A DNA stretch of 63,198 nucleotides from a virus (lineage: Duplodnaviria; Caudoviricetes), in IMG/VR virus record IMGVR_UViG_3300037485_001078, positions 1-63,198 of that record; one strand, written 5' to 3'. Shown here one piece after another: positions 31,614 to 63,198 of this stretch. Under the pieces are notes generated by a model. It saw nothing but the letters and a program-made list of their open reading frames with translations, was not told the DNA's origin and made no database searches. Every line of letters begins with the position of its first letter. Position 1 is the stretch's first letter. The position numbers and the translations under genes were made by a program.

Positions 31614-31850
31614 ATGTCCAAAAAATATAACGACAAGGCGGAGGTCATCAACAAAGCGATCACCTTCATCACAGAATTTTTAGACAATGCGAACGTGTCG
31701 GTCTTTGTGAACTGGGTAGAAGATGGTGAGACTCATCGGGCGGAAATACTGCGAGGAAATCAATTCGCAATTAAGGGGCAGATAGAAAAGTGGGCGTGTG
31801 AAAACCTTAATGAAGTAAGCGACGGCTACCTCTCAAAAGAAGATGAATAA
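31614..31850 (+). CDS. hypothetical protein
   Basis: ORF track; tight packing. Confidence 0.6.
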   Translation: MSKKYNDKAEVINKAITFITEFLDNANVSVFVNWVEDGETHRAEILRGNQFAIKGQIEKWACENLNEVSDGYLSKEDE

Positions 31851-32394: not shown

Positions 32395-32621
32395 AGTTCG
32401 GGAACCCGGGCAAGACTGGCGGAATCTCCGACGACGCCGTGTGTCTCTACAACGAACGCAGGATTATTCTACGCAGAAAGGCGAAGGGAAGTGTTTTGAA
32501 TTGCACCGCACACGAAATAATCCACGCGAGGTGCCCAGATCTTGACGAGAGCGCAGTCCACGACTGCGGAGACCTCATAGATGAAGCCATGAACAAGATC
32601 CTAGAAAATCTAGTCAATTAG
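32340..32621 (+). CDS. small HExxH zincin-like protein
   Basis: AHEIIHA motif. Confidence 0.6.
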   Translation: MHKTKKVCIQISGKKWTIEFGNPGKTGGISDDAVCLYNERRIILRRKAKGSVLNCTAHEIIHARCPDLDESAVHDCGDLIDEAMNKILENLVN

Positions 32622-40288: not shown

Positions 40289-40290
40289 TT

Positions 40291-41109
40291 ATGCCGACGA
40301 TCCAAGACGCCAGCATCAAAATAACAAATTTCCCAAACAAGTTCGCAAGTCCTTTTGGGAACGATGATATTGTTCCCCTGTATTCTTCAGTTCCCTTGAA
40401 GAGTCCAGTGGAAGGTTGCTTGGATTGTGTGGTGTGTGGAAGTTCTCCAACTCGTTATCAAATCATCTCCAACGAGAGTGGAATAGGTAGCGGAGGTGGA
40501 GGCGTTATCATTACCCCCACACCAACACCGCCAGCGCCACCTAGCACTGCATATTATTACACAAACGCCGCAAATAATTATGACTGGGGAACTTTAGGAA
40601 ATTGGAACACAAAAAGTGATGGAAGTGGATTGCCACCAACTGAAATTCCTTGGTCTAATACAGATAACTCAACTACTCATAGTGATCTTATAGATGCGTC
40701 TGATAATTCTCGTGTGGGTATTGGCGGAAGCGATGAAAGTTATTCGATATCTCCACTTCTAAATGTAACTGGAAGTTGCAACATTTACGGAGTATCCAGT
40801 GACATATTAACCACGATTTACGGCGGCACATTTACTGGAAATGATTTTTTAAACGCTGGATATATCCGCGGAGGAACGTTTACTGGAGATAATTTTTTAA
40901 ACGCTAGAGACATCCACGGAGGCACGTTTACTGGAAATAATTTTATCAGCCCCGGAATGATAGACGGAGGCACGTTTACTGTAGATGGTTTTATCAACGC
41001 TGGCGCTATCTTTGGAGGCACGTTTAATGGAACTGGATATATAAATAATAATTATGTGTGTGCTCCCGGTTGGCCGTGCCCACAATCCTGTCCAGACTAC
41101 TGCCCATAA
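40291..41109 (+). CDS. putative receptor-binding protein A (shared anchor + GGTFTG solenoid)
   Basis: N-terminal ~65 aa paralogous to 41111; 15-aa repeats. Confidence 0.65.
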   Translation: MPTIQDASIKITNFPNKFASPFGNDDIVPLYSSVPLKSPVEGCLDCVVCGSSPTRYQIISNESGIGSGGGGVIITPTPTPPAPPSTAYYYTNAANNYDWGTLGNWNTKSDGSGLPPTEIPWSNTDNSTTHSDLIDASDNSRVGIGGSDESYSISPLLNVTGSCNIYGVSSDILTTIYGGTFTGNDFLNAGYIRGGTFTGDNFLNARDIHGGTFTGNNFISPGMIDGGTFTVDGFINAGAIFGGTFNGTGYINNNYVCAPGWPCPQSCPDYCP

Positions 41110-41110
41110 C

Positions 41111-42148
41111 ATGCCATCCATCCAAACAGCATCAATCCCGGTGACCTCATTTCCGAATGAGTACGCGTCTCCGTTTGGAAACGACGACATTGTGCCCCTG
41201 TACTCCTCAGTGCCACTAAAAAGCCCCGTTGTCGGATGTCTCCCCTGCGTGGTGTGTGGCAGTTCTCCAACTCGCTACCAGATCATCTCCAATGAGAGTG
41301 AAATAGGTAGAGGAGATAATCGAGGTGAAGGTGAAAGGGAAGTAAGAATAGAGCCGATTACAGAGACTAATAATTATCTTATTGTTGGTGGCGGTGGTGG
41401 AAGTGCTGACCCAGTGTCTGCTGCATCAGGTGGAGGAGGTGGAGGGGGTGGAGTATTGAGAGGAATACTAGATTTAATTGCAGGACAAACTTATCAAATT
41501 ATAATAGGATCTAGCGATCAACCTAGTTCTGCTTTTGGGCTTACCGCACATGCTGGAGGTAGAGGTGCTGGAAATTATGGTGCTGCAACTATTGGTGCTT
41601 CTGGAGGGGGAGGAGGAGGATGGGCAATTTCGTATGGAACTCCACATCCAGTTGGAGCAGAAGGTATTTCTGGACAAGGACATAGAGGAGGCGATGCCTA
41701 TGGTACTGATGGTGATGGTAATCAACCACACACTGCTGGTGGAGGTGGTGGCGCTGGAGGCCCCGGAGGAACGGGAACCATAGAAAAAGCTGGCGATGGA
41801 GGAAATGGTATTGTTTCTGCGATTTCCGGTACTTCAACTTACTATGGTGGTGGTGGCGGTGGTGGTGCTTTTGGGTATAATCCGTATCCAGTAATACCAT
41901 TTAATGGAGTTGGTGGTTTAGGTGGTGGTGGTCAGGGTGGTCGTGATACTACCAACATTGGGGCAACCGCTGGACTTCCAAATACTGGCGGGGGGGGAGG
42001 TTCAGCAAAATTTGGGGGATCTGGAGTTGTAATTATTTCAATTTTCACGGATGAGTATTCTGGAATAACAACAGGTGCCCCAGAAATTACTGTTATCGGG
42101 GAAAAAACAATTATTACATTTAGAGAATCTGGTTCTTATACCGCATAA
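41111..42148 (+). CDS. putative receptor-binding protein B (shared anchor + glycine-rich domain)
   Basis: YLIVGGGG...GGSGVVII glycine-rich domain. Confidence 0.7.
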   Translation: MPSIQTASIPVTSFPNEYASPFGNDDIVPLYSSVPLKSPVVGCLPCVVCGSSPTRYQIISNESEIGRGDNRGEGEREVRIEPITETNNYLIVGGGGGSADPVSAASGGGGGGGGVLRGILDLIAGQTYQIIIGSSDQPSSAFGLTAHAGGRGAGNYGAATIGASGGGGGGWAISYGTPHPVGAEGISGQGHRGGDAYGTDGDGNQPHTAGGGGGAGGPGGTGTIEKAGDGGNGIVSAISGTSTYYGGGGGGGAFGYNPYPVIPFNGVGGLGGGGQGGRDTTNIGATAGLPNTGGGGGSAKFGGSGVVIISIFTDEYSGITTGAPEITVIGEKTIITFRESGSYTA

Positions 42149-42154
42149 AATTCT

Positions 42155-42538
42155 ATGAAGTCCCAAGTAACCTACAAACTAGTCCCACACGGCACTCAAG
42201 AGTTCCAGAAACTCCAAACCTTTGCCGAATCGTTCGACCACAAAATTGTCCCACATCCGCAGATAAATGTTTACGCGCACTACCGAGATGATATATGTTT
42301 TGGGTACTCAGACCACGTCTACATTCCAACCGTGTACCCCGCATTCCATCCAGCACTAACCAAGGCCAAGGACGTCATCCAAGTGATGTCGGACTGGAGA
42401 GCCCATGTTCAACTCTCTGGAACTACGGGATACATTGGAGTTCCATCTCCAGATCATAGTGGACGTGCAAACTTCCCTCAAACAATCATGGAAAAACTAG
42501 GACTTCATCGCCTTGAGCGTGAAGTCTACAGCCTCTAA
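42155..42538 (+). CDS. hypothetical protein
   Basis: Lies between tail and internal virion genes. Confidence 0.7.
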   Translation: MKSQVTYKLVPHGTQEFQKLQTFAESFDHKIVPHPQINVYAHYRDDICFGYSDHVYIPTVYPAFHPALTKAKDVIQVMSDWRAHVQLSGTTGYIGVPSPDHSGRANFPQTIMEKLGLHRLEREVYSL

Positions 42539-42543
42539 TTATC

Positions 42544-43464
42544 ATGGGTGGATCTCCTTCAGCAGCACCTCAAGTTCAAGCACCAGACAATAGGCCAATG
42601 TGGGCCTCGCTGCAGATGCAGCAGAGTGGACAGAATCAGGCGCTGCAAAGTCGTGCTGACCTGCTCAAGTACATGTCGCAGATTTCTCCCGCAGTTTCCT
42701 ACACCGACGTTTGGGGTCAAAAGGGAGCTGCAAACGTAGCGAAAGACGCCGCAGAGATCAATTATCGCAACCAGCAGGCGATGCAGAAGGCGCTTGACCC
42801 ACAAGGTTTCCAAATTGCTGAAGATACGCGCAACCGAGTTGCTCAGATGGTTAGCCCCACTGGACAAAAGGCACTTGCCAACCAGCAGTTTGCACAACGC
42901 ACATTGCCGGGGATGTACGGAACTGGTCTTGATCCACGTTCCACAATTTATGGCAGTGGGTTGTTCGACTCTAACACGATTCAGGGTCTCCAACTTCAGC
43001 AGCAACTTGCCAATATCGGTCAGGGATACGGAGCCGCAAACCCAGCTCCGAAGGTTGGTATTGATCCCGGCATTGCAGCGTCTATTGCTTCTCAGGAGGG
43101 TGCGCGTGCTGCAGATCGCGCAAATGCCTTTACGCAAAATCTATTTCAAGGTGCTGGCAACCTTCAGCAAAGCTACGAACAAGGAATGAACAGCCTCTAC
43201 GGCAACATGGGACAAGCGGTTCAAACCGATGCGGCCAATCGTTTGGCAGTGCAGCAGGCAAACCAAGCAGCAGCAGCACAGGGCGCTCAGAGTCAAGCGT
43301 CCTCAAATGCTGGGATATACCAAGGCATTGGATCTCTAGCTGGTGGCATACTCGGTTCGTTTGCGGGCCCTGTTGGAAGCGCCGCACTAGGTTATGCTGG
43401 CAAATCATTAGGTGGAATGGCAGCTGGACAAAGCGCTGGTCGAGCAACTGGATTTGGGTACTAA
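42544..43464 (+). CDS. putative internal virion (ejection) protein
   Basis: Q/A/G-rich, glycine-zipper C-terminus, MGG start. Confidence 0.6.
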   Translation: MGGSPSAAPQVQAPDNRPMWASLQMQQSGQNQALQSRADLLKYMSQISPAVSYTDVWGQKGAANVAKDAAEINYRNQQAMQKALDPQGFQIAEDTRNRVAQMVSPTGQKALANQQFAQRTLPGMYGTGLDPRSTIYGSGLFDSNTIQGLQLQQQLANIGQGYGAANPAPKVGIDPGIAASIASQEGARAADRANAFTQNLFQGAGNLQQSYEQGMNSLYGNMGQAVQTDAANRLAVQQANQAAAAQGAQSQASSNAGIYQGIGSLAGGILGSFAGPVGSAALGYAGKSLGGMAAGQSAGRATGFGY

Positions 43465-43546
43465 TTTAGTAGTTGCAGCACCATTTATTTTGTCCTACAA
43501 CTTGTCACAACTTTAACAACAACTAACCCCTAACCAATTAAATATC

Positions 43547-44074
43547 ATGGGAGGATCAGGAGGAGGAGGCGGCTATCAAGCCCCACAACAATATGACAAT
43601 ACAGCCGAGATCATGGCTCAGATGCAGAGACAGCAAGAGGCTGCTGCTGCTGCTGCTCGTGAGGCGCAGCGTCAAGCTGCCATCCAAGCTCAGAACCAAT
43701 CCAACCAGCAGATGGCCAACCAAAGTCAGCAGGCGGTTGGTCAGTACTTGAGTCAGCAGAACCAACTCCAACAGGGTAGGGATCTGGCTGCACAAAGCGC
43801 CGCATCGAGTGCCGCTAGTGCTGGTGCTGGTGCCGCCACAGGTGGTGGGTACGACCTTGCTAAGTCCCAACAGCAGGCGATGTCCAACCTCGGAGCCGCT
43901 TCAGCAGGGATGCCACAAACTAGTGCAAACCAAGTTGGTGCTGGTGGATCCACAATGAACCCAGCGCGTGCTGGACAGGCAGCTACTGTCAATCAGACCG
44001 CCTCTCAAGCGAATCAGTACTCCCTTCCTCCTATGGATGGAATCACTTTCGGAGGATCCAATCCCCTCCGTTAA
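43547..44074 (+). CDS. putative internal virion protein
   Basis: Q/A/G-rich, MGG start. Confidence 0.55.
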   Translation: MGGSGGGGGYQAPQQYDNTAEIMAQMQRQQEAAAAAAREAQRQAAIQAQNQSNQQMANQSQQAVGQYLSQQNQLQQGRDLAAQSAASSAASAGAGAATGGGYDLAKSQQQAMSNLGAASAGMPQTSANQVGAGGSTMNPARAGQAATVNQTASQANQYSLPPMDGITFGGSNPLR

Positions 44075-45783
44075 TGGCTTTCGACACCTCTGGCTTTAGT
44101 TTGAATTTAGGTCAGGAGCAGGCAATTGTGCCTTCTCTTGCTAACCTAGCTCCGTACGCTCCCAACTTCCAAGGGCTTGCGTGGAAACCAGCAGACATCA
44201 AGGCCCCTGTGGTTGTTGATAATTCCGTCATAGGAAAAGCAATAGGTTCTGCTCTCGGAGATGTCGGAAAGGGCATCAGTGTTGCCTACAAGAGTGCTCA
44301 AGACGAGAAGAAAGAAGCTAGGAAGTACGCCTTGGAAAGCGCCAAACTTGCTGCTTCTGAGAGCAAGGACGCCATCAGGGAGGCGCGTGCTCAACAGACC
44401 CACGCCGATTCCATGGCGATGCAGAATGCCAATCTTGCAGTGTCTCAGGGTCAATTGAGCCTAGCTCAACAAAGGCAAGCCGATAAAATGGGCGGTGGCG
44501 CTGATTACAGCGAGTATCTCCCAGAAGAAAAAGCTGTAGACACTGAAACTGGAGACAGAATAATTGATGTAATGGAGGGGATTAAAAAGAAAGAAACCCC
44601 CCAGTACTTCCCCGGTTCAAAACTTGAACTAGGTGCTCCAGCGCCTCCAGTGGATGAGCCCGGCATGTCTTTCGATGGGGAAAATAATCTAGGTTCTTTA
44701 TCAGCTCCAGTTGCAATGCCCCCGCAGGAAGATCAACGATACGCCGCGCTTCGAGATCTAGGCGGAAATGCCCCACAATTTAGCGTGGCCAGCGCCGATG
44801 GAGCTGGAATGCAAGCCCCGACACCCAATCTTCCCTATTCGTTGCAGGGCGGAGTGCCGAAGCCACTCGCTGATGTACAGGTTCCAAGTACAAGAGAGCT
44901 CTACGCGGGATCTGGATTCACTCCTACTCCGATCCCAACTTATGGGACTACGACGCAAGAAGCTCCTGCAGCTAAACAGACAGCGCCTAAAGCTGCAGAA
45001 TCTCCTTTCAAGGCTTTCGCAGTGGTAGACACACAAGGAGTTGTACGTGGTTACAAAGTGTACGACAAAGTCTCTAAAAAACTCCTTCCGGGGGGATTTA
45101 CTGCGGATTCAAAATCTTCCACAGCCCCGCTTGAAAGCATTCAAATTCCAGAGGGACAAAAATTGAAGGGCATGACGATCTCTGCGGAAGGTAAGCCCAG
45201 CTATACTTACGGATTGGAGAGCGAAGGAAAATCCACCGCACCTCTCTTGCAGGATCAGATGAAAGTTTTGACCAACATCGAGGGCGCTAACGCCACCTTG
45301 AACAACATCGAGACAAAACTCAAAGAGATCGGTAGTTCTACTGGCCCAGTTGTCGGAACTGCACGTGGGTACAATCCGTACGATGTTGAAGCCCAGTCTG
45401 TGGACAACATGGTTGCCAGTCTTGTATCTGGACTCGCTCGCGGCGTCTTCGGCGAGGTCGGCGTGCTTACCGATAGCGACGTGAAGCGATATACAAAACT
45501 CATTCCCAACATGAGGACTGATCCCAAGGTCGCACAGCAGATCATGAAGGATCTTCGAGAAAAATTAGACAGCACCAAGAAAGCTAACTTAGGCATCTGG
45601 GAAAAAGCTGGATACAACACGAAGGGATTCCAAGAAACTAAATCTCCCGAACAAATTAAGTTGGAAACTTTAGCGAAAGAACTCGATTCGGCTAAAGATC
45701 AAAATTCTCCTGAATACAAGGCTAAAGACGAAGAGGCGAGAAAGCTCTACAGACTTATAAACAATATAAAGGATAAAAAGTAG
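44074..45783 (+). CDS. putative internal virion protein
   Basis: GEVGVLTDSD..RY...IP motif; position. Confidence 0.6.
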   Translation: MAFDTSGFSLNLGQEQAIVPSLANLAPYAPNFQGLAWKPADIKAPVVVDNSVIGKAIGSALGDVGKGISVAYKSAQDEKKEARKYALESAKLAASESKDAIREARAQQTHADSMAMQNANLAVSQGQLSLAQQRQADKMGGGADYSEYLPEEKAVDTETGDRIIDVMEGIKKKETPQYFPGSKLELGAPAPPVDEPGMSFDGENNLGSLSAPVAMPPQEDQRYAALRDLGGNAPQFSVASADGAGMQAPTPNLPYSLQGGVPKPLADVQVPSTRELYAGSGFTPTPIPTYGTTTQEAPAAKQTAPKAAESPFKAFAVVDTQGVVRGYKVYDKVSKKLLPGGFTADSKSSTAPLESIQIPEGQKLKGMTISAEGKPSYTYGLESEGKSTAPLLQDQMKVLTNIEGANATLNNIETKLKEIGSSTGPVVGTARGYNPYDVEAQSVDNMVASLVSGLARGVFGEVGVLTDSDVKRYTKLIPNMRTDPKVAQQIMKDLREKLDSTKKANLGIWEKAGYNTKGFQETKSPEQIKLETLAKELDSAKDQNSPEYKAKDEEARKLYRLINNIKDKK

Positions 45784-45785
45784 TT

Positions 45786-48700
45786 ATGTCCTATCTAAGC
45801 AAACTTGAAGAGGAGTATTCTCAACAAACTCAGAAGGAGGGGGTAGCTGCACAACCAACGGAGTCCGCAGAGCCGCCTAAGCCAGAAGGCTACCTTGCAA
45901 AGTTAGAGAGCGAGTACAAGTCAGCTCCTACAGAAAAGCCAAAATCATACCTAGAGGGGCTAGACCAAAAGTACGACGTAAATCCAGACTCCTTGCGCGG
46001 TAGGAAAGAGCGCGGAGAGCCGCTGTCTGAGGATCAGGAGCGAGTTATCTTCGATGCAGACCGAGCTCGCAGCGCAGGAGAACAAGCGGCTGCAACTGGC
46101 AAGGGAGTCTTCACCAGCCTCAGTGAATTGGTTCCACAAGCCTTCGAGGGAACAAAGAAAATTATTGGTGCTAGCAAAGACTTGACCAAACAAATTGGAC
46201 TCAAGTACCTAGACGTCAATCCGATTGTTCCCGAGATTGCAGTCGATTACATAGCTGGAAATACCGCAGAAGATAGGCAAACTAATTTGGAGAAAGCAGC
46301 CAAGAAAGAGCAAGAAGTTGTTCGGTCGGCGGCGTCTGGCGCGGTTCAGGCTGGTGAAGAAGTAATTAACGAAGCTGCACGCGGAGCTTTCTTTGGCACA
46401 CCGCTTACAGATCTCATTCAGGAGTACCCCGCTGGCAAGCTAGCGTTTGAAGCCATGAAGGCTGGTGGCCCCGTAGCATTCGCCACTGAAGCACTGGGTC
46501 AAAAGATTTTTGGAGCTCCGCTGGTTGACGTGCAGCCGATCACGAAGGACGAGTCGTTCCAGAGGTCGAGGAATCGTGAGAGCATGCGCCAGCAGGAGCA
46601 GCAGGAGTACAAAGATCTCCCAGAAAGAACTACCGCCGCGCTGGTAAAGCTGGCCGAAAGTTCCGCTGGATCCGCGCTCGGCAAATCTTTGGGAGTCCCC
46701 TCCAACGAGCAGTTCCAAAAGGACTTGGTTCAGGAGCTAAAAGACAGAGCTATCGTTCCAGACAAAGACATCGCCATGATCGGAAATATGTTGAGCCCGC
46801 TGGATCCTACCTTCGTCTTGGCTGGCCCGCTTGCAAGGGCGTCATCGAAAGCATTTGACCTAGCATCTGGGGCTGGTCTCCGAGCTCTCACCAAGCCGAC
46901 TATTGCTGGAATGAATCCCCTTGAAGCAACGGGTCGTGTAATACGATTCGGCGGAGAGGGCACACAAAAGGCCGCAAGAAAGTTCAGCGACTTCCTTACT
47001 GGTTCAGAAGACAGCTTTATCGGAAAACTAGCCGATCCAATTGTTGCGGTCACCCGTCGCCCCGGCATGATTGTCGAGGGCGCAGGACGCGCTCTCAGGG
47101 ACATCGGACGTCAGATCGACGACGTGGGAGTCCGATCTCGTACGGGAATCATCGAGCGGGCTGGACAGGACGCACGTTCTGGAGACTTTATGCGGACAGT
47201 TTTTGGCCCCGGCACCGAGAAGGCTCAGGCCAAAGCTCTCAAAGCAGCTGAGAAAGTGGCTGGTGAGGGTGGAGAGGCTAGCCTACCCGCATCCGCATTC
47301 GTTTCTAAGCGCCAAAAAGCCGCTAGGACTGCGGACTGGGTCTTTAGGCAAGCCGAAGCCATAGCGCGTTACGGAACAAGCGGAGCGGCCATTGGAACCG
47401 CCCTTGGACTTCCCGATATTGAGAACGCGGAGCAGCTCGGACAGATGGCCACTACTGGAGCCATGGTCGGTGCTATTGGTGGCATGAGGCTTGGAGAGAA
47501 GGGCGCAAAGCTGATTGATCCAAGGGTTTCCCTAAAAGGAAAGATCGACGCTATCCTAGCCGACGATCCTGTATCTAGGCGTGCGGACGAGGACGCCGAC
47601 ATCGAGCGTTTCCGAAATACTGCAGCTCCTGATATCATCAGCAAGGCCGACGAATTCGGAAATATTAATTCCGTTCTGCAATCTTTTGACGGACATCTTC
47701 AGAATCTTGCCATCCAACGCGACCAAGCAATTGCTCGTGGAGAGGCCGACGTCGCTGCTGGAATGGAACTTGAAATCAAGAAGACAGCTGCGAGCAAGGA
47801 CGCAGTTGCTAAGATGACTCCAGACGCGATGAAGGAGTACCAGCGCCGAGTTGACCTCACGCTAGCAGATTCGTTAGACCTAGCAAAAACCACAGGTGAA
47901 GCTGTGGGTCTCAACAACGTCGAGATCAAGCTGCTCTCTCCAGTAGAAATGTTGGGTCACCTACGTGACAAGTGGGGATCGACTTTGACAAACGCGGAGT
48001 ATGTTCTTCAGTCACTAGCTGGCAACAACGACCTTAGCGACGCGGATCAGCAGAAACTCAATCAGGCAACGGAGACCGTCAACCAGTTCAACGCCATGTA
48101 TCAGACAGCCATGGCGCAGCGCGGATACGCTATGTCTGAGAACACGTATTCGGATAGCCCAATGCATTTGCGCCCTGCAAATCTCAAGACCCCGTCGGTC
48201 GTCGTCAATTCCGAACTAGTCAAGAGCCAGCTTGGAAACAATTTGTACGCAACTTTGAATCATGAGCTTCTAGCCCACGCGCTAAGGAATTTCAAAGAGG
48301 TCAAAGCGATGATGGGGCCGCTTGAAGAGTACTTGTTTGGAAAGAAGGTTCAGAACGCTGATGGAAGCATCACCGAGATATCAAAAGGAATTTACGACGA
48401 CGCGGCGATCGATCGCATGGGCGACTACTACGCGGAGCTTTTGGGAGGAGACAAGTGGAAGGCTGGATTCTCTACCGAGCAGCAGTACAGGAGCTACATC
48501 AAGGAGGAGATTCTCGCGGAGGCCGCTGGTTTGTCATCCAACACGGCTAATCTACGTGCTGACTTAGACTCACCGGGTCAAGCGTTCGTCGATTGGGCCG
48601 CTACCTCCAACAAGAATACTTTCATCGGAAAGATCCGCGACGCGCTCGGCCTCAAGGGTGTGCTGCTAGACGACGCAGGAAGGATCTCGGACATTCTTGG

Positions 48701-51700
48701 AGAGACGATATCGCCAGAGGTTCTCGCACTCACTCGCCAGTACCAGCGCCAGCTCAGGGACTACAACGGATCCTTGTCGCAAGTCACTTCTGCCACTGGG
48801 CCAGAGGTTACGATCTCGGCTGTTGAGCTGCTATCGAGCAAGATTCTGCAGAACAAGTATCGCGGCCTCGACATCTGGCAAAAGGAGCAGGTGCTCACAA
48901 TCAAGGACGACGAAGGAAACGTGGTCAACGAGATCGTGGTTCCTCAGTCCGCATCTCTCAACGCGCTTGTGGGTCAGTACCGCCTCGAAGACGGCATGCT
49001 TGTGGACGAGAACGGAAACAAGATGCAGATCGCTCCTGAGATCGCCGCAGCAAATCTTCCGAACAACACCAACATTTCTGTTGACCAAAGGATTGCTAGA
49101 AACCCAGACGGCTCTCCAAAGATCCTTTCAAATAGGGAGATTCAGGCGCGTGCTAGGAAGCGCGGAGAGGTGTTGAAAAACGCTATCGAGGGCGCTATGG
49201 AGGATGGATCGACAAACCGAGTCCGACCAGTAGGAGAGAACGAGTACGCTGGCATTCTGAGCCCGACTCAGCTACAGGCGATCTTGGCGCTTCCTAATGA
49301 CATAGTGGCTCCTGAGTTGAAGCGCAAGATTGCAGCCTTCAACGAGACGGCCCTACGTAAGGATGGGACGCGAATGATCGTCGAGTACCAAGCAGCGATG
49401 AAGGGCGGAAAATACAAGGCGCTTGCACCTAAGATCCGCGACGTCGTGCCGTTCGGATTCAGAATTACAAAAGATGGTAACTTCCTAGCGACTACAATTT
49501 CTGTCAGCAGAATTTTCGACAAGATCAACGATTGGGCAAAGCCGAACAGGAACAGGCTAAACCTCTGGAACGGAGATACCAACGCGCTGTGGGAAGACAT
49601 CCTACACGTTCTTACGAACCATCAAAAGGGCGAGCGCGGAGAGGTTGGACTCGACGTTGATCCTGACATGGCGATGCTCAAGAAGGATCGAATCAACGAC
49701 ATCTTCAATCTCTTCGACAAGGCCACCGAGTCGAAGAACCCCGATCGTTCCGTAAGCAAGACACGCAAGGGACAAGACTCAATCGACCGCGTCATCATGG
49801 GAATGAGGATGGATCGCGTAAACGACTTCCAGATTTCAAACGCTCAGAAGATCCCAGTGGACTACGGCAAGATCAAAGAGAACTACATGCCAAACGTGCC
49901 TGTAGACGTCGTCCAGAATAATGTTGCCGAGGAAGGCCGCTTAGGTTATAAAGAATCTCCAACCATTAAATATCGTGAACCAAAATACGAAACCACCAAC
50001 CCCCCAAGACTGGGATACATCGATCCGCGAACTACAGAGGAAGGTCAGAGAGTCCTCCGAGAGGATCCAACCCTCGCGCGGGCCTTTGCCGCCCTTGAAG
50101 GAGCGTCTGAGGCTGGCGGAGATCAGCGCCCAACTTCAGGGTCTTCGGTAATACCAGCGGAAACAGAAGCTCTTAGAGAGTTCGCAAAAAACTCAGGGAC
50201 TATGGAGTCTCCTGAAGTCGTCCAAAAATTTACTGATGATTGGAACGCAGAAAATAGAACCGCTGGAACTGAACATCAGGTTTTATTGGGAAACGGAGAT
50301 CGAGTAGAAAAGCGTTTCACAGCCACGTACAACGATACGTGGAAAAACTATCTCAACCGAATATTGTTACACAATATCCTGTTCAGGGATTCAGCGATCA
50401 GGCTCGAAGGTTTCCAAGAAGTTCCTGAAATAACGCAGGATCGTAACGGGCAAGAGTGGAGTCCGGGGTTTTACGCCAAGATTTCTCAGCCATACGCTAG
50501 AGGAAAACACGTTGATCTCATAAAGGATCTCAAGCCGTACATGGAATCGTTGGGCTTCGTTTCTAACGGGCCGATGAATTATTACCACCCAGAATACGGA
50601 GTCCACGTCTCGGACATGCACCCCGGCAATGCATACGTGGAAACGGATGCACAAGGGAACAAGCACGTAAATGTGTTTGATCCAAACTTGCACTTGACTG
50701 GCGAGAAAGAAGGCGACGCCAAGGAACGTGCCCGCGTTGAAGCCAAGTTGGCTACTCAAAGACCAGTTGAGGAAGTTGGTTTTAGCTGGCCGCAAGAGGT
50801 TGACGCAGCGATAGGCCGCATGAAGTCGGTGGTGGAAAACCCGCAGAACATGCCGACTGAGGTCAAGCCTGAAGCACCGCTACCAGTCAATCTCTACGAG
50901 GCTGGAACTAGTTTGGAATCGTTTGGCGTTAATTCGTTGAAGGAAATTGCCGAGCACTACGGCTTCCCAGTCCCAGATAAAGCCAAGCGCGGGGAGATCA
51001 TCGATCTCGTTGAAAACAGGTCGTCTGAAGTGCAATTCAAGCCAGCTACTATAAGGCGCGAAGTTGGGAAGAACGAAGATTTCCTCGGAATGTCCGACGA
51101 GAAAGACGCACAAGAAGCTCTTGACGTCAGCAAGCGCCCGAAATTCGGACTAGCACGCGACCTCGAACAAGGTTACCCGGTCGCACTGCGAATCGACATC
51201 CCAGCGTTCAACCGCACTGGGAACTACGTCGTGACGGTTCATGAAAAGGGAACTCCAAGCAAGGTCGGAGAGGTCATCGGGTACGACAACGTCGCTCGTG
51301 TTGACAACCCCACGTTCATGTCTAACGAGACTGGTGCTGAAAAGATTTCTAAGGGAGAGAGCAAGAAGTTCCCGATTGCCACGGTGGCTGGTGAGTTCAA
51401 CCCATCCCGCGAAATCCCCGCAGATATCAACGATTGGACACCAGTCGGATTCGACCCCAAGGAGCACTCGTACTTCTACGACAAGGCGACCGACGAGCTT
51501 GTGCTGGGCGGAGACGAGGCCGTGAGTGTTGGCAACACCGTCTTTGTAAAGAACCCAGTCTACGGCGACAAGGGGATGGCCCGCTTTATGCCTGCAGCGA
51601 AGGGCGACTCTCCGCAGTCCAGCCTGTCCAAGGACGAGCGCGACGCAGCCGTCAAGTTCTTAGAGCGTGGCACGCTTTCCATGGCGGAGGTTCACGACTC

Positions 51701-54419
51701 ACTCGCCAAGCTCGCCAACGGCGACGTGCAGTCCATCACCGAAAAGCTCTCCACGGGCCGACTCTTCGAGCTCGCGCACAAAGCTACTGGCACTCCGATC
51801 CTGAACCGCGTAGATGCCCTCTCAGCCGTCCGTAGGAACATCAACAGCCGCAAGGACGCACTGACTCAGAGCAGCATGGCATCACCGATGGCCGACGACA
51901 TCGTCCGCACTCCTGTCAATCGTCAGGCCGCTCAGGGGTTGGCATTTAAGCCATCAGAAAGGTACACAACCGTCGAGGTGGCTCCCGACCCAGAAGACAA
52001 GAAAGCGGTTGAGGCTTGGAATTCTTTCAACGAGGCAAGCAAAAAGATAGTAACCGAAAAGGTAGCCAACGATATGCTCCCTAAGATTGCGTCTGACATG
52101 GGTCTACCTGAGCCAATAATCACGCACATCATTGGAGGTTTCCTGAAAGAGACCAATCCTAGCGTGCTGGTAGAATTTCCATCAGATATTCCCTACGAAA
52201 AGCAAATGGAGTTCGCCAAGGTGGCTGGTCACTTGCTCAAGCAGCAGGCGGTCATCACATTTGACGAAGCAAACAAGACTGATGATCAAGCGTTCTTTGT
52301 CGGACTCACTCCATCACGTGAACTTTCGTACGAGGAAACGTCTGAGCTGTACAAAAAAATCAACGATCAAATGGAAGAAGCCGCAGGCTTCACGGGTAAG
52401 ACGGATCAGCTTGTCTTCGGTAATTTCAGCGAAATGTCAAACGAAGATTTCTACACTAAATTGAAATCTGTTGTGGACGAAGTGGGAACTGGCGTTGATT
52501 ATGGCATCAACACCGTACAACACGAATTCCGATCGAACTACATCGAGACGGGATCACCAGACACACTCAACGAAACACAATATGGGAAAGGTAACACACA
52601 GGAAGGCGGAACCGGGGGAGACTCTATTCGGGGGGCTCAAGGGCGTTTTGATGCCCTTCAAACCGCTACAAACGAAGCCGTCCGAGGAGCCATCGAATCC
52701 GAACGAGCCAGTGCCGCAGGAGAAACCACAGGAGTAACCGCCACTCCACAGGCATCGGTAATGCCTCAGTCCGCTCTCAACGTCCTGCACGCCGATAGCG
52801 CCGACCTACCAAAGCCTGAGAAGAAGATCACGAATGCTCGTGTCGCGGTAAACATCGCAGACATTGCAGAGAAGTACTGGGGCGGAAAGATCACGAGTGA
52901 GACTATCACTCCTGAGCAGGAGCAGCAGCTTATCGACAACGGAGCCGAGGAGGCTATCGCTGCGCTTACCGCTAGTGGTAGGAACGCAGGTAACTGGTAC
53001 TTTACCGCAATTAAAGCCGCCATTGCGGTAGTTGGGGTTATCCACAAACAGCTCTCTTCATTGGTCGAAGCAAACAAGATTCCTTATTTTGCTAAGGAAT
53101 CAAACCCAGTAGAAGCAGCTCAGTTCATCCTGAGATTGCCACTTGCGATCACATCGCAGAACATGACCGTTCCTTTGAACGCTCGTTTCTCCGAGGAGCA
53201 GTACAATCACTACGTCAAGAATGGCGAGTTCGATCCATCCAAGCAGTATGGTGAGAAGGCGAAGAGCATCAGCGGCAACCTAAAGCTAGCCAATACCATG
53301 ATTAAGAACCATGGCGGAATCCTGCAGCTCCAAGAGTTTGTTAAGCAGGAATTCACCGTCAGGGATCTTGAGAAGGTCGCCAGCAAGATTGCAGGACAGA
53401 AAGTCACTATCTCAGGACGCAAGGACGACATCGTCAATGGAGCCGCTATCTTCGGCCCTAAGATTGGCCAAGGATTCCTGCAAAATCTCATGGGCAAGTT
53501 CGATCCAGTAACGATCGATCTCTGGATGCGTCGGACGTGGGGTAGGTGGACAGGAGATGTCGTAGGTGACGGCGTCACTGGCACACGACTAGCACGCTTA
53601 ATCGATGAATCTCGCAACTCAGGAAGGAAGTTGCCCCCATCGCTGAAAAACCTTCGTACTGTAGACCGCAGCCTTGACGTCAAGAAAAGCGGAGAGCCTA
53701 CAAAGCCAGTACGTACCATATCGGAAAACGTCGAGGAGAGGTTAGAAAACGATCCTCAGTTCAGGAAAGACGTTGAGACACTCGCCAAGGAGTGGAACCG
53801 CGAGTTCCAGAAGTATTATGACTTCATGGGAGCTCCTATCTCTCCAGCTACCGCCCAAGGAATCAGGGATCTCATCGCCAACCAAGCTCCAGAAGCAGAT
53901 ATCACGAAGGCGTACAACAAGTTGATTCGCAGCCAGAGCAAGATCCGCGAGGATCTCGATGAGGCGTACAAGCAGCTTTCTCCAGCTCAGAAACGTACTG
54001 CAGAAGGCAAGAATATCCCCAAGGATACTTGGATCGCCGAGCAGCACGCAAAGAACGGACGCACCGAGGTTCTAACCAACCCCGAAAAGAACAAGCTGAA
54101 GCCCCAGTGGGCCAACGCAGCGAAGTCAATCGTAGCCGAGCTGAATCCTATCGACATCCCCACCGATCAAGACCGCGTAGTCATTACGCGCATCGTGAAT
54201 GGCATCCGCAAGAAACTTGAGGACAAAGGGTACACGGTCACCAACGCCGATATCCAAGCCATTTTGTGGTATCCAGAAAAAGATCTCTGGGCTAAGTTGA
54301 GGGGAGAGGAAGAATCAAACCTGAACACATCTTATGACGACGAATTCATCAAAATCGCAGAGCAACGCGGACTTGGAGCAGAAGCCAAAGCAATTGCAAA
54401 ACCAATCCGAGGCTATTGA
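45786..54419 (+). CDS. large polyvalent internal virion protein (2877 aa) with kinase-like and HhH-glycosylase-like domains
   Basis: GTEH.V...YLNRILLHN.LF...SQPY...SDMHPGN...FDP; WY...AITS...GPKI...NL...VTID.W...QAILW. Confidence 0.75.
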   Translation: MSYLSKLEEEYSQQTQKEGVAAQPTESAEPPKPEGYLAKLESEYKSAPTEKPKSYLEGLDQKYDVNPDSLRGRKERGEPLSEDQERVIFDADRARSAGEQAAATGKGVFTSLSELVPQAFEGTKKIIGASKDLTKQIGLKYLDVNPIVPEIAVDYIAGNTAEDRQTNLEKAAKKEQEVVRSAASGAVQAGEEVINEAARGAFFGTPLTDLIQEYPAGKLAFEAMKAGGPVAFATEALGQKIFGAPLVDVQPITKDESFQRSRNRESMRQQEQQEYKDLPERTTAALVKLAESSAGSALGKSLGVPSNEQFQKDLVQELKDRAIVPDKDIAMIGNMLSPLDPTFVLAGPLARASSKAFDLASGAGLRALTKPTIAGMNPLEATGRVIRFGGEGTQKAARKFSDFLTGSEDSFIGKLADPIVAVTRRPGMIVEGAGRALRDIGRQIDDVGVRSRTGIIERAGQDARSGDFMRTVFGPGTEKAQAKALKAAEKVAGEGGEASLPASAFVSKRQKAARTADWVFRQAEAIARYGTSGAAIGTALGLPDIENAEQLGQMATTGAMVGAIGGMRLGEKGAKLIDPRVSLKGKIDAILADDPVSRRADEDADIERFRNTAAPDIISKADEFGNINSVLQSFDGHLQNLAIQRDQAIARGEADVAAGMELEIKKTAASKDAVAKMTPDAMKEYQRRVDLTLADSLDLAKTTGEAVGLNNVEIKLLSPVEMLGHLRDKWGSTLTNAEYVLQSLAGNNDLSDADQQKLNQATETVNQFNAMYQTAMAQRGYAMSENTYSDSPMHLRPANLKTPSVVVNSELVKSQLGNNLYATLNHELLAHALRNFKEVKAMMGPLEEYLFGKKVQNADGSITEISKGIYDDAAIDRMGDYYAELLGGDKWKAGFSTEQQYRSYIKEEILAEAAGLSSNTANLRADLDSPGQAFVDWAATSNKNTFIGKIRDALGLKGVLLDDAGRISDILGETISPEVLALTRQYQRQLRDYNGSLSQVTSATGPEVTISAVELLSSKILQNKYRGLDIWQKEQVLTIKDDEGNVVNEIVVPQSASLNALVGQYRLEDGMLVDENGNKMQIAPEIAAANLPNNTNISVDQRIARNPDGSPKILSNREIQARARKRGEVLKNAIEGAMEDGSTNRVRPVGENEYAGILSPTQLQAILALPNDIVAPELKRKIAAFNETALRKDGTRMIVEYQAAMKGGKYKALAPKIRDVVPFGFRITKDGNFLATTISVSRIFDKINDWAKPNRNRLNLWNGDTNALWEDILHVLTNHQKGERGEVGLDVDPDMAMLKKDRINDIFNLFDKATESKNPDRSVSKTRKGQDSIDRVIMGMRMDRVNDFQISNAQKIPVDYGKIKENYMPNVPVDVVQNNVAEEGRLGYKESPTIKYREPKYETTNPPRLGYIDPRTTEEGQRVLREDPTLARAFAALEGASEAGGDQRPTSGSSVIPAETEALREFAKNSGTMESPEVVQKFTDDWNAENRTAGTEHQVLLGNGDRVEKRFTATYNDTWKNYLNRILLHNILFRDSAIRLEGFQEVPEITQDRNGQEWSPGFYAKISQPYARGKHVDLIKDLKPYMESLGFVSNGPMNYYHPEYGVHVSDMHPGNAYVETDAQGNKHVNVFDPNLHLTGEKEGDAKERARVEAKLATQRPVEEVGFSWPQEVDAAIGRMKSVVENPQNMPTEVKPEAPLPVNLYEAGTSLESFGVNSLKEIAEHYGFPVPDKAKRGEIIDLVENRSSEVQFKPATIRREVGKNEDFLGMSDEKDAQEALDVSKRPKFGLARDLEQGYPVALRIDIPAFNRTGNYVVTVHEKGTPSKVGEVIGYDNVARVDNPTFMSNETGAEKISKGESKKFPIATVAGEFNPSREIPADINDWTPVGFDPKEHSYFYDKATDELVLGGDEAVSVGNTVFVKNPVYGDKGMARFMPAAKGDSPQSSLSKDERDAAVKFLERGTLSMAEVHDSLAKLANGDVQSITEKLSTGRLFELAHKATGTPILNRVDALSAVRRNINSRKDALTQSSMASPMADDIVRTPVNRQAAQGLAFKPSERYTTVEVAPDPEDKKAVEAWNSFNEASKKIVTEKVANDMLPKIASDMGLPEPIITHIIGGFLKETNPSVLVEFPSDIPYEKQMEFAKVAGHLLKQQAVITFDEANKTDDQAFFVGLTPSRELSYEETSELYKKINDQMEEAAGFTGKTDQLVFGNFSEMSNEDFYTKLKSVVDEVGTGVDYGINTVQHEFRSNYIETGSPDTLNETQYGKGNTQEGGTGGDSIRGAQGRFDALQTATNEAVRGAIESERASAAGETTGVTATPQASVMPQSALNVLHADSADLPKPEKKITNARVAVNIADIAEKYWGGKITSETITPEQEQQLIDNGAEEAIAALTASGRNAGNWYFTAIKAAIAVVGVIHKQLSSLVEANKIPYFAKESNPVEAAQFILRLPLAITSQNMTVPLNARFSEEQYNHYVKNGEFDPSKQYGEKAKSISGNLKLANTMIKNHGGILQLQEFVKQEFTVRDLEKVASKIAGQKVTISGRKDDIVNGAAIFGPKIGQGFLQNLMGKFDPVTIDLWMRRTWGRWTGDVVGDGVTGTRLARLIDESRNSGRKLPPSLKNLRTVDRSLDVKKSGEPTKPVRTISENVEERLENDPQFRKDVETLAKEWNREFQKYYDFMGAPISPATAQGIRDLIANQAPEADITKAYNKLIRSQSKIREDLDEAYKQLSPAQKRTAEGKNIPKDTWIAEQHAKNGRTEVLTNPEKNKLKPQWANAAKSIVAELNPIDIPTDQDRVVITRIVNGIRKKLEDKGYTVTNADIQAILWYPEKDLWAKLRGEEESNLNTSYDDEFIKIAEQRGLGAEAKAIAKPIRGY

Positions 54420-54533: not shown

Positions 54534-54677
54534 ATGCCCCTTAAACAATGCGCCTCCCAGAATTGCTTTGAACGCAATATTGCCTCAGAAGTCCGTTCTG
54601 GCACTCCTGTAAAACAAGCTGTTGCCATCGCTTATAGCGTCAAACGTAGGGCTCAAGCAAAAGCCAAGAAAAAATAG
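54534..54677 (+). CDS. small basic conserved phage protein
   Basis: MPLK...NI..E...G.P.KQAVAIAYS motif. Confidence 0.75.
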   Translation: MPLKQCASQNCFERNIASEVRSGTPVKQAVAIAYSVKRRAQAKAKKK

Positions 54678-54687
54678 TCGCGTCTAA

Positions 54688-55314
54688 ATGCGAATAGAAA
54701 TCAAGGCAGTTGATCCGATCGCGCTGCGCGAAAAATCTGTCTGGCTGAAGGACGGCTCGCTACAAGTTCTCGTCCCAGATTATGGGAACAACAACAACGG
54801 GTCTTTTTTAGTTGCACTACGTGAATTGGTAGAAGCGTGGCAGTGTCGTAAGTTGCACATCCCCAATGGAGCGGTTAAGCACAAACAAGAGATCGTTGCG
54901 GCTGAGATTGAGAGGCACGTTGCGAACGCACTTGAAATTGATTGGCAGCAGCACGAGAAGTGGGTCGAGAATTCGTACGACGAAGTTGCTCGTAATAGTA
55001 CGATAGAAGCTCCAAGAATTTTACTTCACGGCCCACGTGCTTGGGCCGAACTTCACCTCTTTGCACTGCGTCATGAAGCAACGCGTCATGGCGTCAGTGC
55101 TGCAAGTTGGTTTGCGGATTGGGTCGCGGATCTTCCCTTCGATGGTTGTCCATGCAAGGGGCACCTGCACGAATTTTTAGCGTGCAATCCTCCCGACTGG
55201 GACAAGTTTTTTTCGTGGTCAGTCAACCTGCACAACGCGGTGAATGCGCGTATCGGAAAACTCACGATTGGCCTTGATCAGGCGCGTGAGCTTTGGTCTT
55301 CGAGGTTGTTCTAG
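54688..55314 (+). CDS. protein with C-terminal Erv1/Alr-like sulfhydryl oxidase domain
   Basis: GPRAWAELH...GCPCKGH...FFSWSVNLHNAVNARIGK. Confidence 0.72.
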   Translation: MRIEIKAVDPIALREKSVWLKDGSLQVLVPDYGNNNNGSFLVALRELVEAWQCRKLHIPNGAVKHKQEIVAAEIERHVANALEIDWQQHEKWVENSYDEVARNSTIEAPRILLHGPRAWAELHLFALRHEATRHGVSAASWFADWVADLPFDGCPCKGHLHEFLACNPPDWDKFFSWSVNLHNAVNARIGKLTIGLDQARELWSSRLF

Positions 55315-55328
55315 CTCCTAGAGCTAGT

Positions 55329-55391
55329 GTTTATGCGGGTCAAAATAATTAAAACTTTTTATTGCTAACCGAAGCGGAATAGGCAATACTC
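55329..55391 (+). promoter_or_regulatory. conserved phage early promoter, copy 2
   Basis: GTTTATGCGGGTCAAAATAATTAAAACTTTTTATTGCTAACCGAAGCGGAAT; TTGCTA-17-AATACT. Confidence 0.7.
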
Positions 55392-61557: not shown

Positions 61558-62904
61558 GTGATTACTCTCCGTGAGTATCAGGTAAAAGCCGTAGATGTAC
61601 TATCCAAGTCGATAGCTGACAACGGCGTCGCGGTAGACCTGTCCGATACGGGTCTCGGAAAGACGATGCACAGCCTCGGAACTATCCAACGATTTGGATC
61701 CGAGATCGAGTTCATCGTGATTTGCCGAGCCGTATCCCGGCACAAGTGGGAAAAAGCAGTTCGAGACTTCGGACTTCAGGATCGGTGCATCGCTGTGGAC
61801 AGCTACCAGAAGTTCACAAGCGGTCGTCACTACAAGGAGCACGTTACGAAAATAAAGGGACGCGGAGTCAAGTACGTGTGGGCCGATCGAGAAGTTCCGA
61901 TGATCGTTATCTTCGACGAGTGTCAGGACGCGGGCGGTCTCACAAGCCTGAATAGCCAGCTTCTAATCGGCTGTGGGGAGTGCGGCGGGACGTTCCCGCT
62001 ATGCCTAAGCGCGACGGTCGCTGACAGCCCTCTGAAGCTCAAGGCGCTGGGATTCTTAACGGGCATGCACGACGTGAAGAACTACTACCAGTGGTGCCTG
62101 CAGAACGGCTGCGGAAAGAGCCCCTTCGGGTTCAACAATTTGTATTTCAGAAACTCCGACCGAAAAACAGTAGTCGGAAAGTTGCACCAGCACCTCAAGC
62201 GGTACGGCGTGCGTGTGAAGCGCGAGGAGGTCATGGAGTACATGCCCGAAGAGACGATCGAGGTGGAGCTCTGGGACGTCGGGAGCAGACCAAAGTCTGG
62301 AGTCGTGGCCGACGCGCTGGAGAATCTGGAGCGGACGCGTGACGAGGATCTTGTGCGCCACGAGGAGGCGGTTCCCGGGGCCGTGGAGACCATGCGCAAT
62401 CGTCAGGAGGCGGAACTGCTAAAACTACCAGCGCTGGCACGTGAGATCGTTGCAGCTGCCGAGGACGGCCTCTACGTGCCAGTGTTCCTTAACTTCGTAA
62501 ACTCGATCGACGCGCTCGTCTCGCTACTAGCTGGAGATGGGATCACTGCGGGAGTCTTCGATGGTCGTGATACAAAGAACCGCGACCAAACTCTTCAGGA
62601 CTTCATGGACGCAAAGCTGCGGTGCATCATTCTTCAGTCTCAGGCTGGATCAGCGGCAATCGATTTGCACGACACCGTGGGAGGACGTCCACGATGCACA
62701 TTTGTTTGTCCGACTTATCAAGCGGAGACCATGCTCCAGATGCTGGGACGTGCCACGCGTTTCGGTGCCAAGTCTCCAGTGCTTCAGCGCATCTGCTTCG
62801 CCGAAGGAACGATCGAGGAGCGCGTGTACCGCGTCGCCGAAACGAAGTGCGAGAACATACGAGCGATGAACGACGGGGAGTGGGCCAACGCTTTTGGCAA
62901 TTGA
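61558..62904 (+). CDS. superfamily 2 (SNF2-like) helicase
   Basis: LREYQ, DTGLGKT, FDECQ, SAT and Q..GR..R motifs. Confidence 0.85.
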   Translation: MITLREYQVKAVDVLSKSIADNGVAVDLSDTGLGKTMHSLGTIQRFGSEIEFIVICRAVSRHKWEKAVRDFGLQDRCIAVDSYQKFTSGRHYKEHVTKIKGRGVKYVWADREVPMIVIFDECQDAGGLTSLNSQLLIGCGECGGTFPLCLSATVADSPLKLKALGFLTGMHDVKNYYQWCLQNGCGKSPFGFNNLYFRNSDRKTVVGKLHQHLKRYGVRVKREEVMEYMPEETIEVELWDVGSRPKSGVVADALENLERTRDEDLVRHEEAVPGAVETMRNRQEAELLKLPALAREIVAAAEDGLYVPVFLNFVNSIDALVSLLAGDGITAGVFDGRDTKNRDQTLQDFMDAKLRCIILQSQAGSAAIDLHDTVGGRPRCTFVCPTYQAETMLQMLGRATRFGAKSPVLQRICFAEGTIEERVYRVAETKCENIRAMNDGEWANAFGN

Positions 62905-62935
62905 CTCTATCGACAATAAAAATATATTTGTCCCT

Positions 62936-63198
62936 ATGGCAGTTACTAAAAGAACCAATCCTGTAAATACTGTTGTTAAACCGGGCGGTGGCGTTACTAC
63001 CTACCTGACCAACCCTACAGGCCCGAGAACTAATCCTGTAAATTCTGTTGTTAAACCAAGCGGTGGCGTTTCTACCTACCTGACCAACCCTACAGGCCCG
63101 AGAACTAATCCTGTAAATTCTGTTGTTAAACCAAGCGGTGGCGTTTCTACCTACCTGACCAACCCTACAGGCCCGAGAACTAATCCTGTAAATTCTGT
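62936..63198 (+). CDS. 5' part of origin-spanning repeat protein
   Basis: TTGACT-16-TATATT, then ATG 62936 MAVTKRTNPVNTVVKPGGGV..., open to the window end. Confidence 0.65.
   Translation, partial: MAVTKRTNPVNTVVKPGGGVTTYLTNPTGPRTNPVNSVVKPSGGVSTYLTNPTGPRTNPVNSVVKPSGGVSTYLTNPTGPRTNPVNS
62951..63198 (+). repeat. 75-bp tandem repeat; last 55 nt equal the first 55 nt of the window
   Basis: Units start at 62994, 63069 and 63144, with a diverged partial copy upstream. Confidence 0.95.

Follow-up and report, generated by a model that had tools for sequence, protein, structure and literature searches.

A Cys-x-Cys variant of the Erv/ALR oxidase fold encoded at the end of the late genes of an uncultured tailed phage

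The complete 63,198-bp IMG/VR virus record IMGVR_UViG_3300037485_001078, which ends in direct terminal repeats and is analysed here over its full length (the window), carries an open reading frame (ORF) at 54688-55314 whose C-terminal half genuinely belongs, by fold and by sequence, to the Erv/ALR family in all respects except the CxxC motif. The residues of its predicted flavin site are conserved, the ORF sits at the end of a late operon, and its distribution among close relatives is patchy. The encoded protein would be an accessory, late-expressed thiol oxidase of the Erv/ALR type that depends on flavin adenine dinucleotide (FAD) and acts on co-expressed phage proteins, a reading for which the chances stand about even; that it binds FAD, that it works as an oxidase and which proteins it would act on are inferred. 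Bacterial disulfide formation is normally treated as periplasmic, and Erv oxidases as a trait of eukaryotes and large DNA viruses.

A sequence-only reading of the window had proposed an Erv1/Alr-like domain with CxC in place of CxxC, to be checked by profile and structure comparison. Both checks were positive, and Pfam, profile searches of the PDB, AlphaFold 2 (AF2) modelling with VIA-align and Foldseek all bear the assignment out. Specifically, Pfam family PF04777 matches residues 118-203 at E 3.2e-6, scoring 27.9 bits where the cut-off is 27.6, and a second search gave 29.1 bits. A phmmer search of the PDB returned nine sequences, all Erv/ALR oxidases, the best being pB119L of African swine fever virus (ASFV; 3gwl, E 1e-6). 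With a profile of 60 diverse homologues, all 15 PDB matches were Erv/ALR proteins, including 3gwl (4e-17), ALR (about 3e-13), Erv1 (2.6e-12) and Erv2 (3e-8). The AF2 model of the 208-residue product, built with 23 homologues, reaches a mean predicted local distance difference test score (pLDDT) of 89.0 and a predicted template-modelling score of 0.69. When it was compared with 48,161 chains by VIA-align, six Erv oxidase entries (3gwl, 3w4y, 4e0i, 1jr8, 3td7 and 3gwn) scored Z 11.2-13.5, led by 3gwl_B (Z 13.5, root-mean-square deviation 2.3 over 96 aligned residues) and including yeast Erv1 (12.5 and 12.2), Erv2 (12.0) and mimivirus R596 (11.2), against Z 5.5 for the best unrelated row. Foldseek likewise placed 3gwl first (target-normalized template-modelling score 0.77-0.79, deviation about 2), at an E of 2e-3 that lies above the tool's 1e-3 line. 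The resemblance to Erv proteins is far beyond chance.

The active-site signature is present as GP..W..LH ... GCPC..H ... W ... LHNAVN ... GK, starting from G115 (nucleotide 55030), close to where it had been read by eye. Among 23 close homologues at 38-86% identity, G153, C154, P155, C156 and H159 are invariant (23/23), as are W119, H123, W177, H182, N183, V185, N186 and R188. Across 60 diverse members, W119, H123, C156, W177, H182 and N183 remain invariant, each aligning with an identical residue of human/rat ALR by HMMER, and V185 and N186 are kept in at least 90%. The W..H and W...HNxVN signature residues are those that we take to contact FAD in Erv/ALR proteins. The counterpart of C156 in pB119L, AtErv1 and ALR is the second Cys of their CxxC, which is the flavin-proximal one in ALR and Erv2; the partner of C156 lies one residue nearer. 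Outside the CxC, the alignment of 23 homologues contains a single near-invariant Cys (C53), with no evident shuttle pair and no structural pair.

Across the family, the partner Cys occupies position i-2 (G-C-x-C) in most members and i-3 (P-C-x-x-C) in others. In 195 proteins from two protein searches, 144 have CxC and 35 CxxC upstream of HNxVN, one has neither, and in 15 HNxVN was not located. Among 283 unique domains, CxC outnumbers CxxC 205 to 65, and the two forms interleave with at least 24 switches on a quick FastTree phylogeny, which is of low resolution and was built with the site columns kept in. Since the forms interleave in this way, the two spacings appear to do the same job, which argues that they are functionally interchangeable redox pairs, unlike a decaying site.

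By homology, the domain belongs to a large family of uncultured viruses that mostly carry CxC. Homologues of the ORF form 48 clusters at 90% identity (E<=0.001), of which 46 bear a precomputed PF04777 match; all are metagenomic, the longest contigs reaching about 110 kb. At 50% identity there are 911 clusters (E<=1e-3), mostly proteins of 90-190 amino acids (aa) that match the Erv domain alone. In two scans of IMG/VR, 202 of 260 candidates were confirmed in the first and 374 of 392 in the second, which also took in contigs labelled as giant-virus metagenome-assembled genomes (MAGs), mostly with CxxC. PHROGs holds no family for the Erv ORF or for 10 distant homologues, and NCBIfam none for the Erv ORF. 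When three family members were compared by tblastn with 50,697 GenBank phage records, a single record was returned each time, 'Mollyvirus Mo1-1' (BTJB01000001.1; loci L175 and L176), which has the look of a Mollivirus-type giant virus and is taken as a false phage match. Filed under Caudoviricetes, Molycolviridae, the record spans 620 kb, uses ml_ gene names and encodes a eukaryotic-type primase as well as two adjacent Erv-like genes (gene motif CSTC); it resembles an amoeba virus of the Mollivirus type that was filed by mistake under a genus of flavobacterial phages. Because this sole match looks like a misfiled giant virus, no true phage among these GenBank records carries the domain. A scan of GTDB species genomes gave four loci; these come from MAGs of Pirellula and Rhodobacteraceae, and their number is too small for a host to be named. 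No paper on an Erv-type oxidase in a tailed phage was found in the literature searched, which excluded most subscription journals.

The coupling of the domain to Cys-rich virion proteins that the sequence-only reading had suspected is seen in other phage lineages, where the Erv gene abuts genes for tail-module proteins. In the siphovirus-like lineage 2 (loci L057-L093), genes for capsid (PF05065), tail completion, chaperone and a Cys-free tape measure are followed by a 290-aa gene, a 111-aa gene, a protein of 433-509 aa with 31-42 Cys, an Erv gene of 129-147 aa (GCSC) and genes of DNA metabolism, the Erv gene starting at the stop codon of the Cys-rich protein. All seven loci that were found through the Cys-rich protein and reach far enough downstream carry the Erv gene; as close kin, they count as one lineage. 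Within this protein, 34 of 37 Cys are conserved at 32% overall identity, and Cys accounts for 18 of the 37 invariant columns. Further Erv-adjoining proteins occur in L112 (574 aa, 28 Cys), L114 (639 aa, 62 Cys, its module also containing a tape-measure gene) and L155 (404 aa, 27 Cys). Over all fetched loci, 33 of the 306 ORFs of at least 400 aa contain at least 4.5% Cys; 29 of these abut an Erv gene with a gap of 0-1 nucleotides (nt), three lie where the contig end cuts the Erv ORF, and one is at a distance of 1051 nt. These ORFs come from lineage 2, L112, L114, L155 and L153. The fetched loci were centred on the Erv gene, which biases what is found nearby, but direct abutment in four lineages is unexplained by this bias. 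The Cys-rich tail-module proteins have no PHROG match, and the L065 member, the sole one scanned against Pfam, has none there either. Several of them (404-639 aa, 27-62 Cys) start with a CCCxCC-type cluster, resembling the MSCDC with which ORF 32670 of the window begins.

In three other proteins, L058:241-1374 (377 aa), L131:5977-8289 (770 aa) and L155:5722-7569 (615 aa), the Erv domain is N-terminal, and the remainder looks glycosyltransferase-like, judging by eye from DADC/DADV motifs; the L131 fusion has methyltransferase-like sequence too. Such fusions would fit an enzyme that modifies phage structural proteins. The adjacency to tail proteins with 27-62 Cys in at least four lineages supports a role in oxidizing phage proteins generally. 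A broader proposal, held at somewhat below even chances, is that tailed phages carry their own undescribed Erv branch, with CxC at the flavin, for making disulfide-crosslinked, even cystine-packed, tail and virion proteins in the cytoplasm; in the phage group of the window, the enzyme would then serve as an optional booster, joined to a zincin-like domain that has decayed and would bind clients.

The setting of the gene within the window is compatible with late expression; no RNA data set is listed among the sequencing runs that contain the sequence. The phage is identified as tailed by matches to an exonuclease, a family-A DNA polymerase, a large terminase and tail-fibre and virion-protein PHROGs, and the genome further matches endonuclease VII and a helicase and carries two tRNAs; nearly all long ORFs lie on the + strand. 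The earlier placement of the Erv ORF as last gene of the structural block is a fair one: it comes after a giant polyvalent-type protein and a 47-aa ORF and closes the late operon, packed tightly behind the late genes with a gap of 10 nt to the 47-aa ORF. The hairpin at its stop codon is suggestive at most, as terminator-like sites are not commoner in the region than chance (three, against 2.2 expected from shuffles). Downstream lie DUF932 and small variable genes, and the locus as a whole is a variable island. The giant protein matches Kinase-PolyVal PF18762 over residues 1459-1620 (E 1.7e-16; score 61 bits, cut-off 27).

In the proposed mechanism, the flavin-proximal C156 would be kept and its exchangeable partner shifted one residue closer, giving a C-P-C disulfide. 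Dithiols of the substrate would reduce the C154-C156 disulfide, from which electrons would pass to FAD and on to O2, yielding H2O2. Disulfides could in this way arise de novo despite the reducing conditions of the bacterial cytoplasm, just as yeast Erv1p forms them with O2 in the cytoplasm of E. coli (PMC8601162). The likeliest clients would be phage proteins that are synthesized alongside the enzyme, for instance tail or fibre proteins bearing CxxCxxC and Cys-rich ends, the probable capsid protein and the product of ORF 18930. In this phage, the oxidase would be a dispensable helper and not a required assembly step.

A number of observations weigh against this role. The single-sequence PF04777 score is borderline, exceeding its cut-off by 0.3 bits. 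The canonical flavin-side CxxC is absent from the window protein, which has CxC instead, and activity is therefore proposed on sequence grounds; the same literature search turned up no Erv enzyme with a flavin-side CxC. Most directly, the domain is dispensable within this phage group. Relatives were retrieved through the probable capsid protein at 78-98% identity, giving 24 records at least 91% complete, of which 16 match the two-domain profile, three of these in the N-terminal domain only. Record G001, which breaks off within the giant ORF, was set aside, leaving 23 assessable relatives; the check with a domain hidden Markov model covered 21 fetched genomes (G007 in part), with G006, G012 and G022 left out. 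Thirteen of the 23 carry the Erv domain, three the N-terminal domain only and seven no such gene. In these seven the locus is otherwise intact, with the giant gene and the downstream genes present. On a tree of portal, terminase and capsid from 21 genomes, at least four gains or losses are required; shuffled labels require 7.0 on average and were as low in 8 of 500 trials.

Virion Cys content does not follow the gene either. The sequence-only reading had suggested correlating gene presence with capsid Cys; in this comparison, the 10 of 23 relatives without the domain have the same core virion Cys counts. For those genes of the window that have 10 or more orthologues with a coverage of 50% or higher, a set outside which the variable fibre genes fall, mean Cys numbers with and without the Erv domain are 7.3 and 7.2 for the probable capsid, 9.1 and 8.2 for ORF 18930, 7.5 and 6.4 for the portal-like protein, 4.0 and 4.0 for ORF 34699, and 11.0 and 10.4 for ORF 38156. 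Beyond the Erv gene's own, no gene family is strongly linked to the domain in the 11 genomes with and 10 without it; the closest is a Cys-poor family of about 60 aa (9/11 with, 3/10 without), and the fibre N-terminal family is found in 9/11 and 4/10.

The picture of a generally Cys-rich virion stands only in its particulars. The individual motifs and counts listed in the sequence-only reading are all present, including eight Cys each in ORF 18930 and the probable capsid, the paralogous GCLDCVVCG and GCLPCVVCG in the N-termini of ORFs 40282/40291 and 41054/41111, and the end of ORF 40282-41109 in CAPGWPCPQSCPDYCP. General enrichment is absent: against 1.29% Cys for the whole window (252 of 19555 aa), the late block 15053-54419 has 0.93% and the remaining ORFs 1.96%. 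Without its last five ORFs (42155-54419, 1 Cys in 4054 aa), the late block has 1.35%, and ORF 22449 (428 aa) has none. If Cys were as frequent as in the non-late genes, the chance of finding none in the 2877 residues of the giant protein would be about 2e-25; the four preceding ORFs (42155-45783) contain one Cys in 1177 aa. Giant homologues of about 1000-4269 aa have 0-3 Cys whether or not an Erv domain is present, and selection by the oxidase was rejected as the cause of the Cys-free giant, as homologues in Erv-less genomes also have none in 2972-4269 aa. The tape-measure proteins of other Erv-carrying phages are likewise Cys-free.

Nor is an encoded disulfide 'pathway', as the earlier title had it, borne out by the genome. 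The thioredoxin, glutaredoxin and DsbA families PF00085, PF00462 and PF01323 gave no match in the complete 63198-bp genome at E<=0.1, divergent folds being possible; their control matches numbered 14, 14 and 9 of 14 genomes. The 47-aa protein with its CxxxxC was tried as a dedicated shuttle or adaptor and rejected, being present in the Erv-less G013, G018 and G019 and belonging to phrog_2423. As such, the idea that the phage oxidizes its own virion proteins finds neither Cys enrichment nor correlation here, and draws its support from the Cys-rich neighbours of the gene in other lineages.

The island-like, patchy behaviour of the gene, with a polyvalent protein as its neighbour, makes a role directed at the host a rival to be taken seriously, if an unlikely one: as a redox effector or counter-defence, the enzyme would leave virion proteins alone and either oxidize thiols of the host, such as thioredoxin, low-molecular-weight thiols or defence proteins that depend on Cys, or make H2O2. 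The repeated gains and losses, the place in a variable island between the Kinase-PolyVal protein and DUF932 with small variable genes, and virion Cys counts that do not correlate with the gene would all suit such an effector. They are set against the tight packing behind late genes in the window and, in at least four other lineages, translational coupling to hyper-Cys-rich tail proteins or fusion to glycosyltransferase-like sequence; moreover, no defence-related family match turned up, PADLOC not having been run.

A second alternative starts from the N-terminal domain. This domain resembles zincins in VIA-align comparisons at a weak Z of 4.1-5.1, to selecase (4qhf), BepA (6sar), CapP (7t5t), BlaR1 (8exp), PprI (8sln), abylysin (4jiu) and YbeY, about a dozen minimal zincins in a range that the tool calls common. 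An atlas lead (0.86) to a cluster with Peptidase_M78 on 12% of its members yielded no family. In an alignment of 23 sequences, the zincin motif HExxH is lacking from the window protein: the window clade reads RELVE, and most relatives have HExxE together with a segment of about 20 aa (YHxQH) that the window lacks. Because of RELVE and the missing segment, a metal site in the window domain is unlikely. No homology was detected to the 93-aa HExxH ORF 32340 (hhalign probability 0.2%).

In G003, G007 and G010, the N-terminal domain is a stand-alone gene of 131-132 aa, and in these genomes as well as G005, G008, G011, G015 and G017 a protein of about 430 aa with 7-10 Cys lies directly upstream of the N-domain gene. 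This family (F36) occurs only in genomes with the N-domain gene, with nine members and none in the seven genomes that lack the gene; it has no family match in Pfam, PHROGs, NCBIfam or the PDB, and an ATP-grasp assignment made by eye is supported by no tool. The two proteins could form a small enzymatic module that processes a peptide or a small-molecule thiol, with the Erv domain as an optional add-on. The confinement of F36 to genomes with the N-domain gene, the solitary N-domains and the retention of HExxE and YHxQH in most relatives point that way. We nevertheless regard this as improbable, given that the window genome lacks the 430-aa gene, that its N-domain has lost both the His of HExxE and the YHxQH segment, and that the module rests on a partner without family match and a zincin likeness of Z 4-5. 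Least probable is that the CxC shortening abolished redox cycling and left a catalytically dead, structural Erv fold as a binding module, for although the gene is dispensable in relatives and no biochemically characterized Erv enzyme with CxC at the flavin turned up in the searchable literature, the GCPC and flavin-site residues are invariant among close homologues, C156 is so in all 60 diverse members, and the predominance of CxC is unlike a decaying site.

Comparison with known systems places the thiol-oxidase reading in context. The best sequence and structure match, ASFV pB119L (3GWL; 25-27% identity), is like the window protein a minimal helical bundle without the CX16C structural disulfide or an evident shuttle disulfide. 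It differs in having CxxC, where the window protein has G-C-P-C with an approach loop two residues longer, in belonging to a eukaryotic virus and in lacking the additional N-terminal domain; pB119L is reported to work with partner proteins. Yeast Erv1p and human ALR have the same fold (Z 12.2-12.5) and identical W, H, W and HNxVN in the alignment. Erv1/ALR proteins combine CxxC with an N-terminal shuttle CxxC and a structural disulfide, whereas in the window protein the CxC is accompanied by a single additional near-invariant Cys (C53), and a structural pair is absent. The disulfide pathway of poxviruses is essential. It resembles the phage case in a virus-encoded Erv-type oxidase, a reducing cytoplasm and expression with late or virion genes (vaccinia E10R, A2.5L and G4L), E10R and virion morphogenesis being cited in PMC10598087. 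Unlike the pox pathway, the phage gene is dispensable among close relatives, the window has no thioredoxin, glutaredoxin or DsbA match, and its 47-aa CxxxxC protein is not Erv-specific. In the engineered CyDisCo system, an Erv oxidase makes disulfides in the bacterial cytoplasm with O2 (PMC8601162). Redox-active Cys-x-Cys motifs in oxidative folding are found in Mia40, whose CPC motif is named in PMC4019985, and in the C-terminal CGC shuttle of Erv2; neither is the flavin-adjacent pair, whereas the CxC of the window protein holds the position of the catalytic Erv CxxC.

The coordinates of the features are collected in Table 1. The probable capsid ORF owes its identity to an atlas lead (PF13252 on 18% of near-cluster members), conservation and position; its AF2 model is unusable as a fold (pLDDT 33), and it has no match in the PDB or in GenBank phages. 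It is 83-98% identical over the best 120 of 782 clusters, and its matches define an abundant phage group without a cultured relative. Four of its eight Cys fall within the last 50 residues. A second capsid candidate, ORF 23741-24757, lies in the region of the head genes and encodes a highly conserved protein of 338 aa (473 clusters, with identities of 54-76% over the best 120). It was rejected on consensus DDD and GEDVSFC motifs and weak glycosyltransferase PHROG matches, and looks like a GT-A glycosyltransferase among the structural genes. Also inside the structural region, 31843-32621 holds an endonuclease VII gene and the 93-aa ORF with its HEIIH motif; in several relatives, homologues of this small ORF are located downstream of the Erv gene at a distance of a few kb.

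The 47-aa ORF follows the pattern MPL..C....C.. ... AIAYS ... KKK and matches phrog_2423, a family whose function is not known, at E 2.6e-16. It is present in 26 of the loci L001-L080, with both Cys retained in 25 of the 26 and neither in the remaining one, L004. Its identity among relatives is 52-91%, though their giant proteins are often just 25-30% identical. The fibre-like genes 40282-41109 and 41054-42148 adjoin and have in common an N-terminal module of about 55 aa with CxxCxxC, encoded by a DNA repeat (40330-40495 and 41150-41315) that is 76% identical. The first of them and ORF 29025 contain repeats of 48-51 nt encoding GGTFTG-type units (29297-29543 and 40816-41060), and the second (41054-42148) has a Pfam Gly_rich_2 domain. 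The terminal repeats measure 205 bp and hold 75-bp tandem copies at both ends (window 1-280 and 62844-63198).

Table 1. Coordinates of the Erv ORF, its parts and further features of the window
Feature	Position	Strand	Remarks
Two-domain ORF, N-terminal zincin-like and C-terminal Erv/ALR	54688..55314	+	208 aa, listed ORF
N-terminal zincin-like domain	54688..55002	+	about residues 1-105; two strands and three helices (AF2)
Erv/ALR-fold domain, predicted to bind FAD	55015..55308	+	about residues 110-207; PF04777, VIA-align, Foldseek
W119-A-E-L-H123, helix-1 signature common to ALR	55042..55056	+	invariant in both alignments
C154-P155-C156, CxC in place of the CxxC redox pair	55147..55155	+	
W177 ... 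H182-N183-A-V185-N186, signature common to ALR	55216..55245	+	LHNAVN at nt 55228-55245
Weak terminator-like hairpin overlapping the ORF stop codon, then a 115-nt gap	55311..55337	+	suggestive only
47-aa very basic ORF with CASQNC	54534..54677	+	10 nt upstream of the Erv ORF
2877-aa polyvalent-type giant protein	45786..54419	+	zero Cys; Kinase-PolyVal PF18762
Probable capsid ORF	27480-28688		402 aa, 8 Cys

For the phage in the window, these findings indicate that the enzyme is optional and that virion Cys content is independent of the Erv gene. If the proposal for the wider family is true, phages can introduce oxidative folding to the cytoplasm of bacteria and offer a natural equivalent of the engineered disulfide systems, which would explain how tail proteins with 30-60 conserved cysteines are made. 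In addition, these compact oxidases of about 95 residues, with their new CxC active site, would be of interest for enzymology and for the production of disulfide-rich proteins in bacteria.

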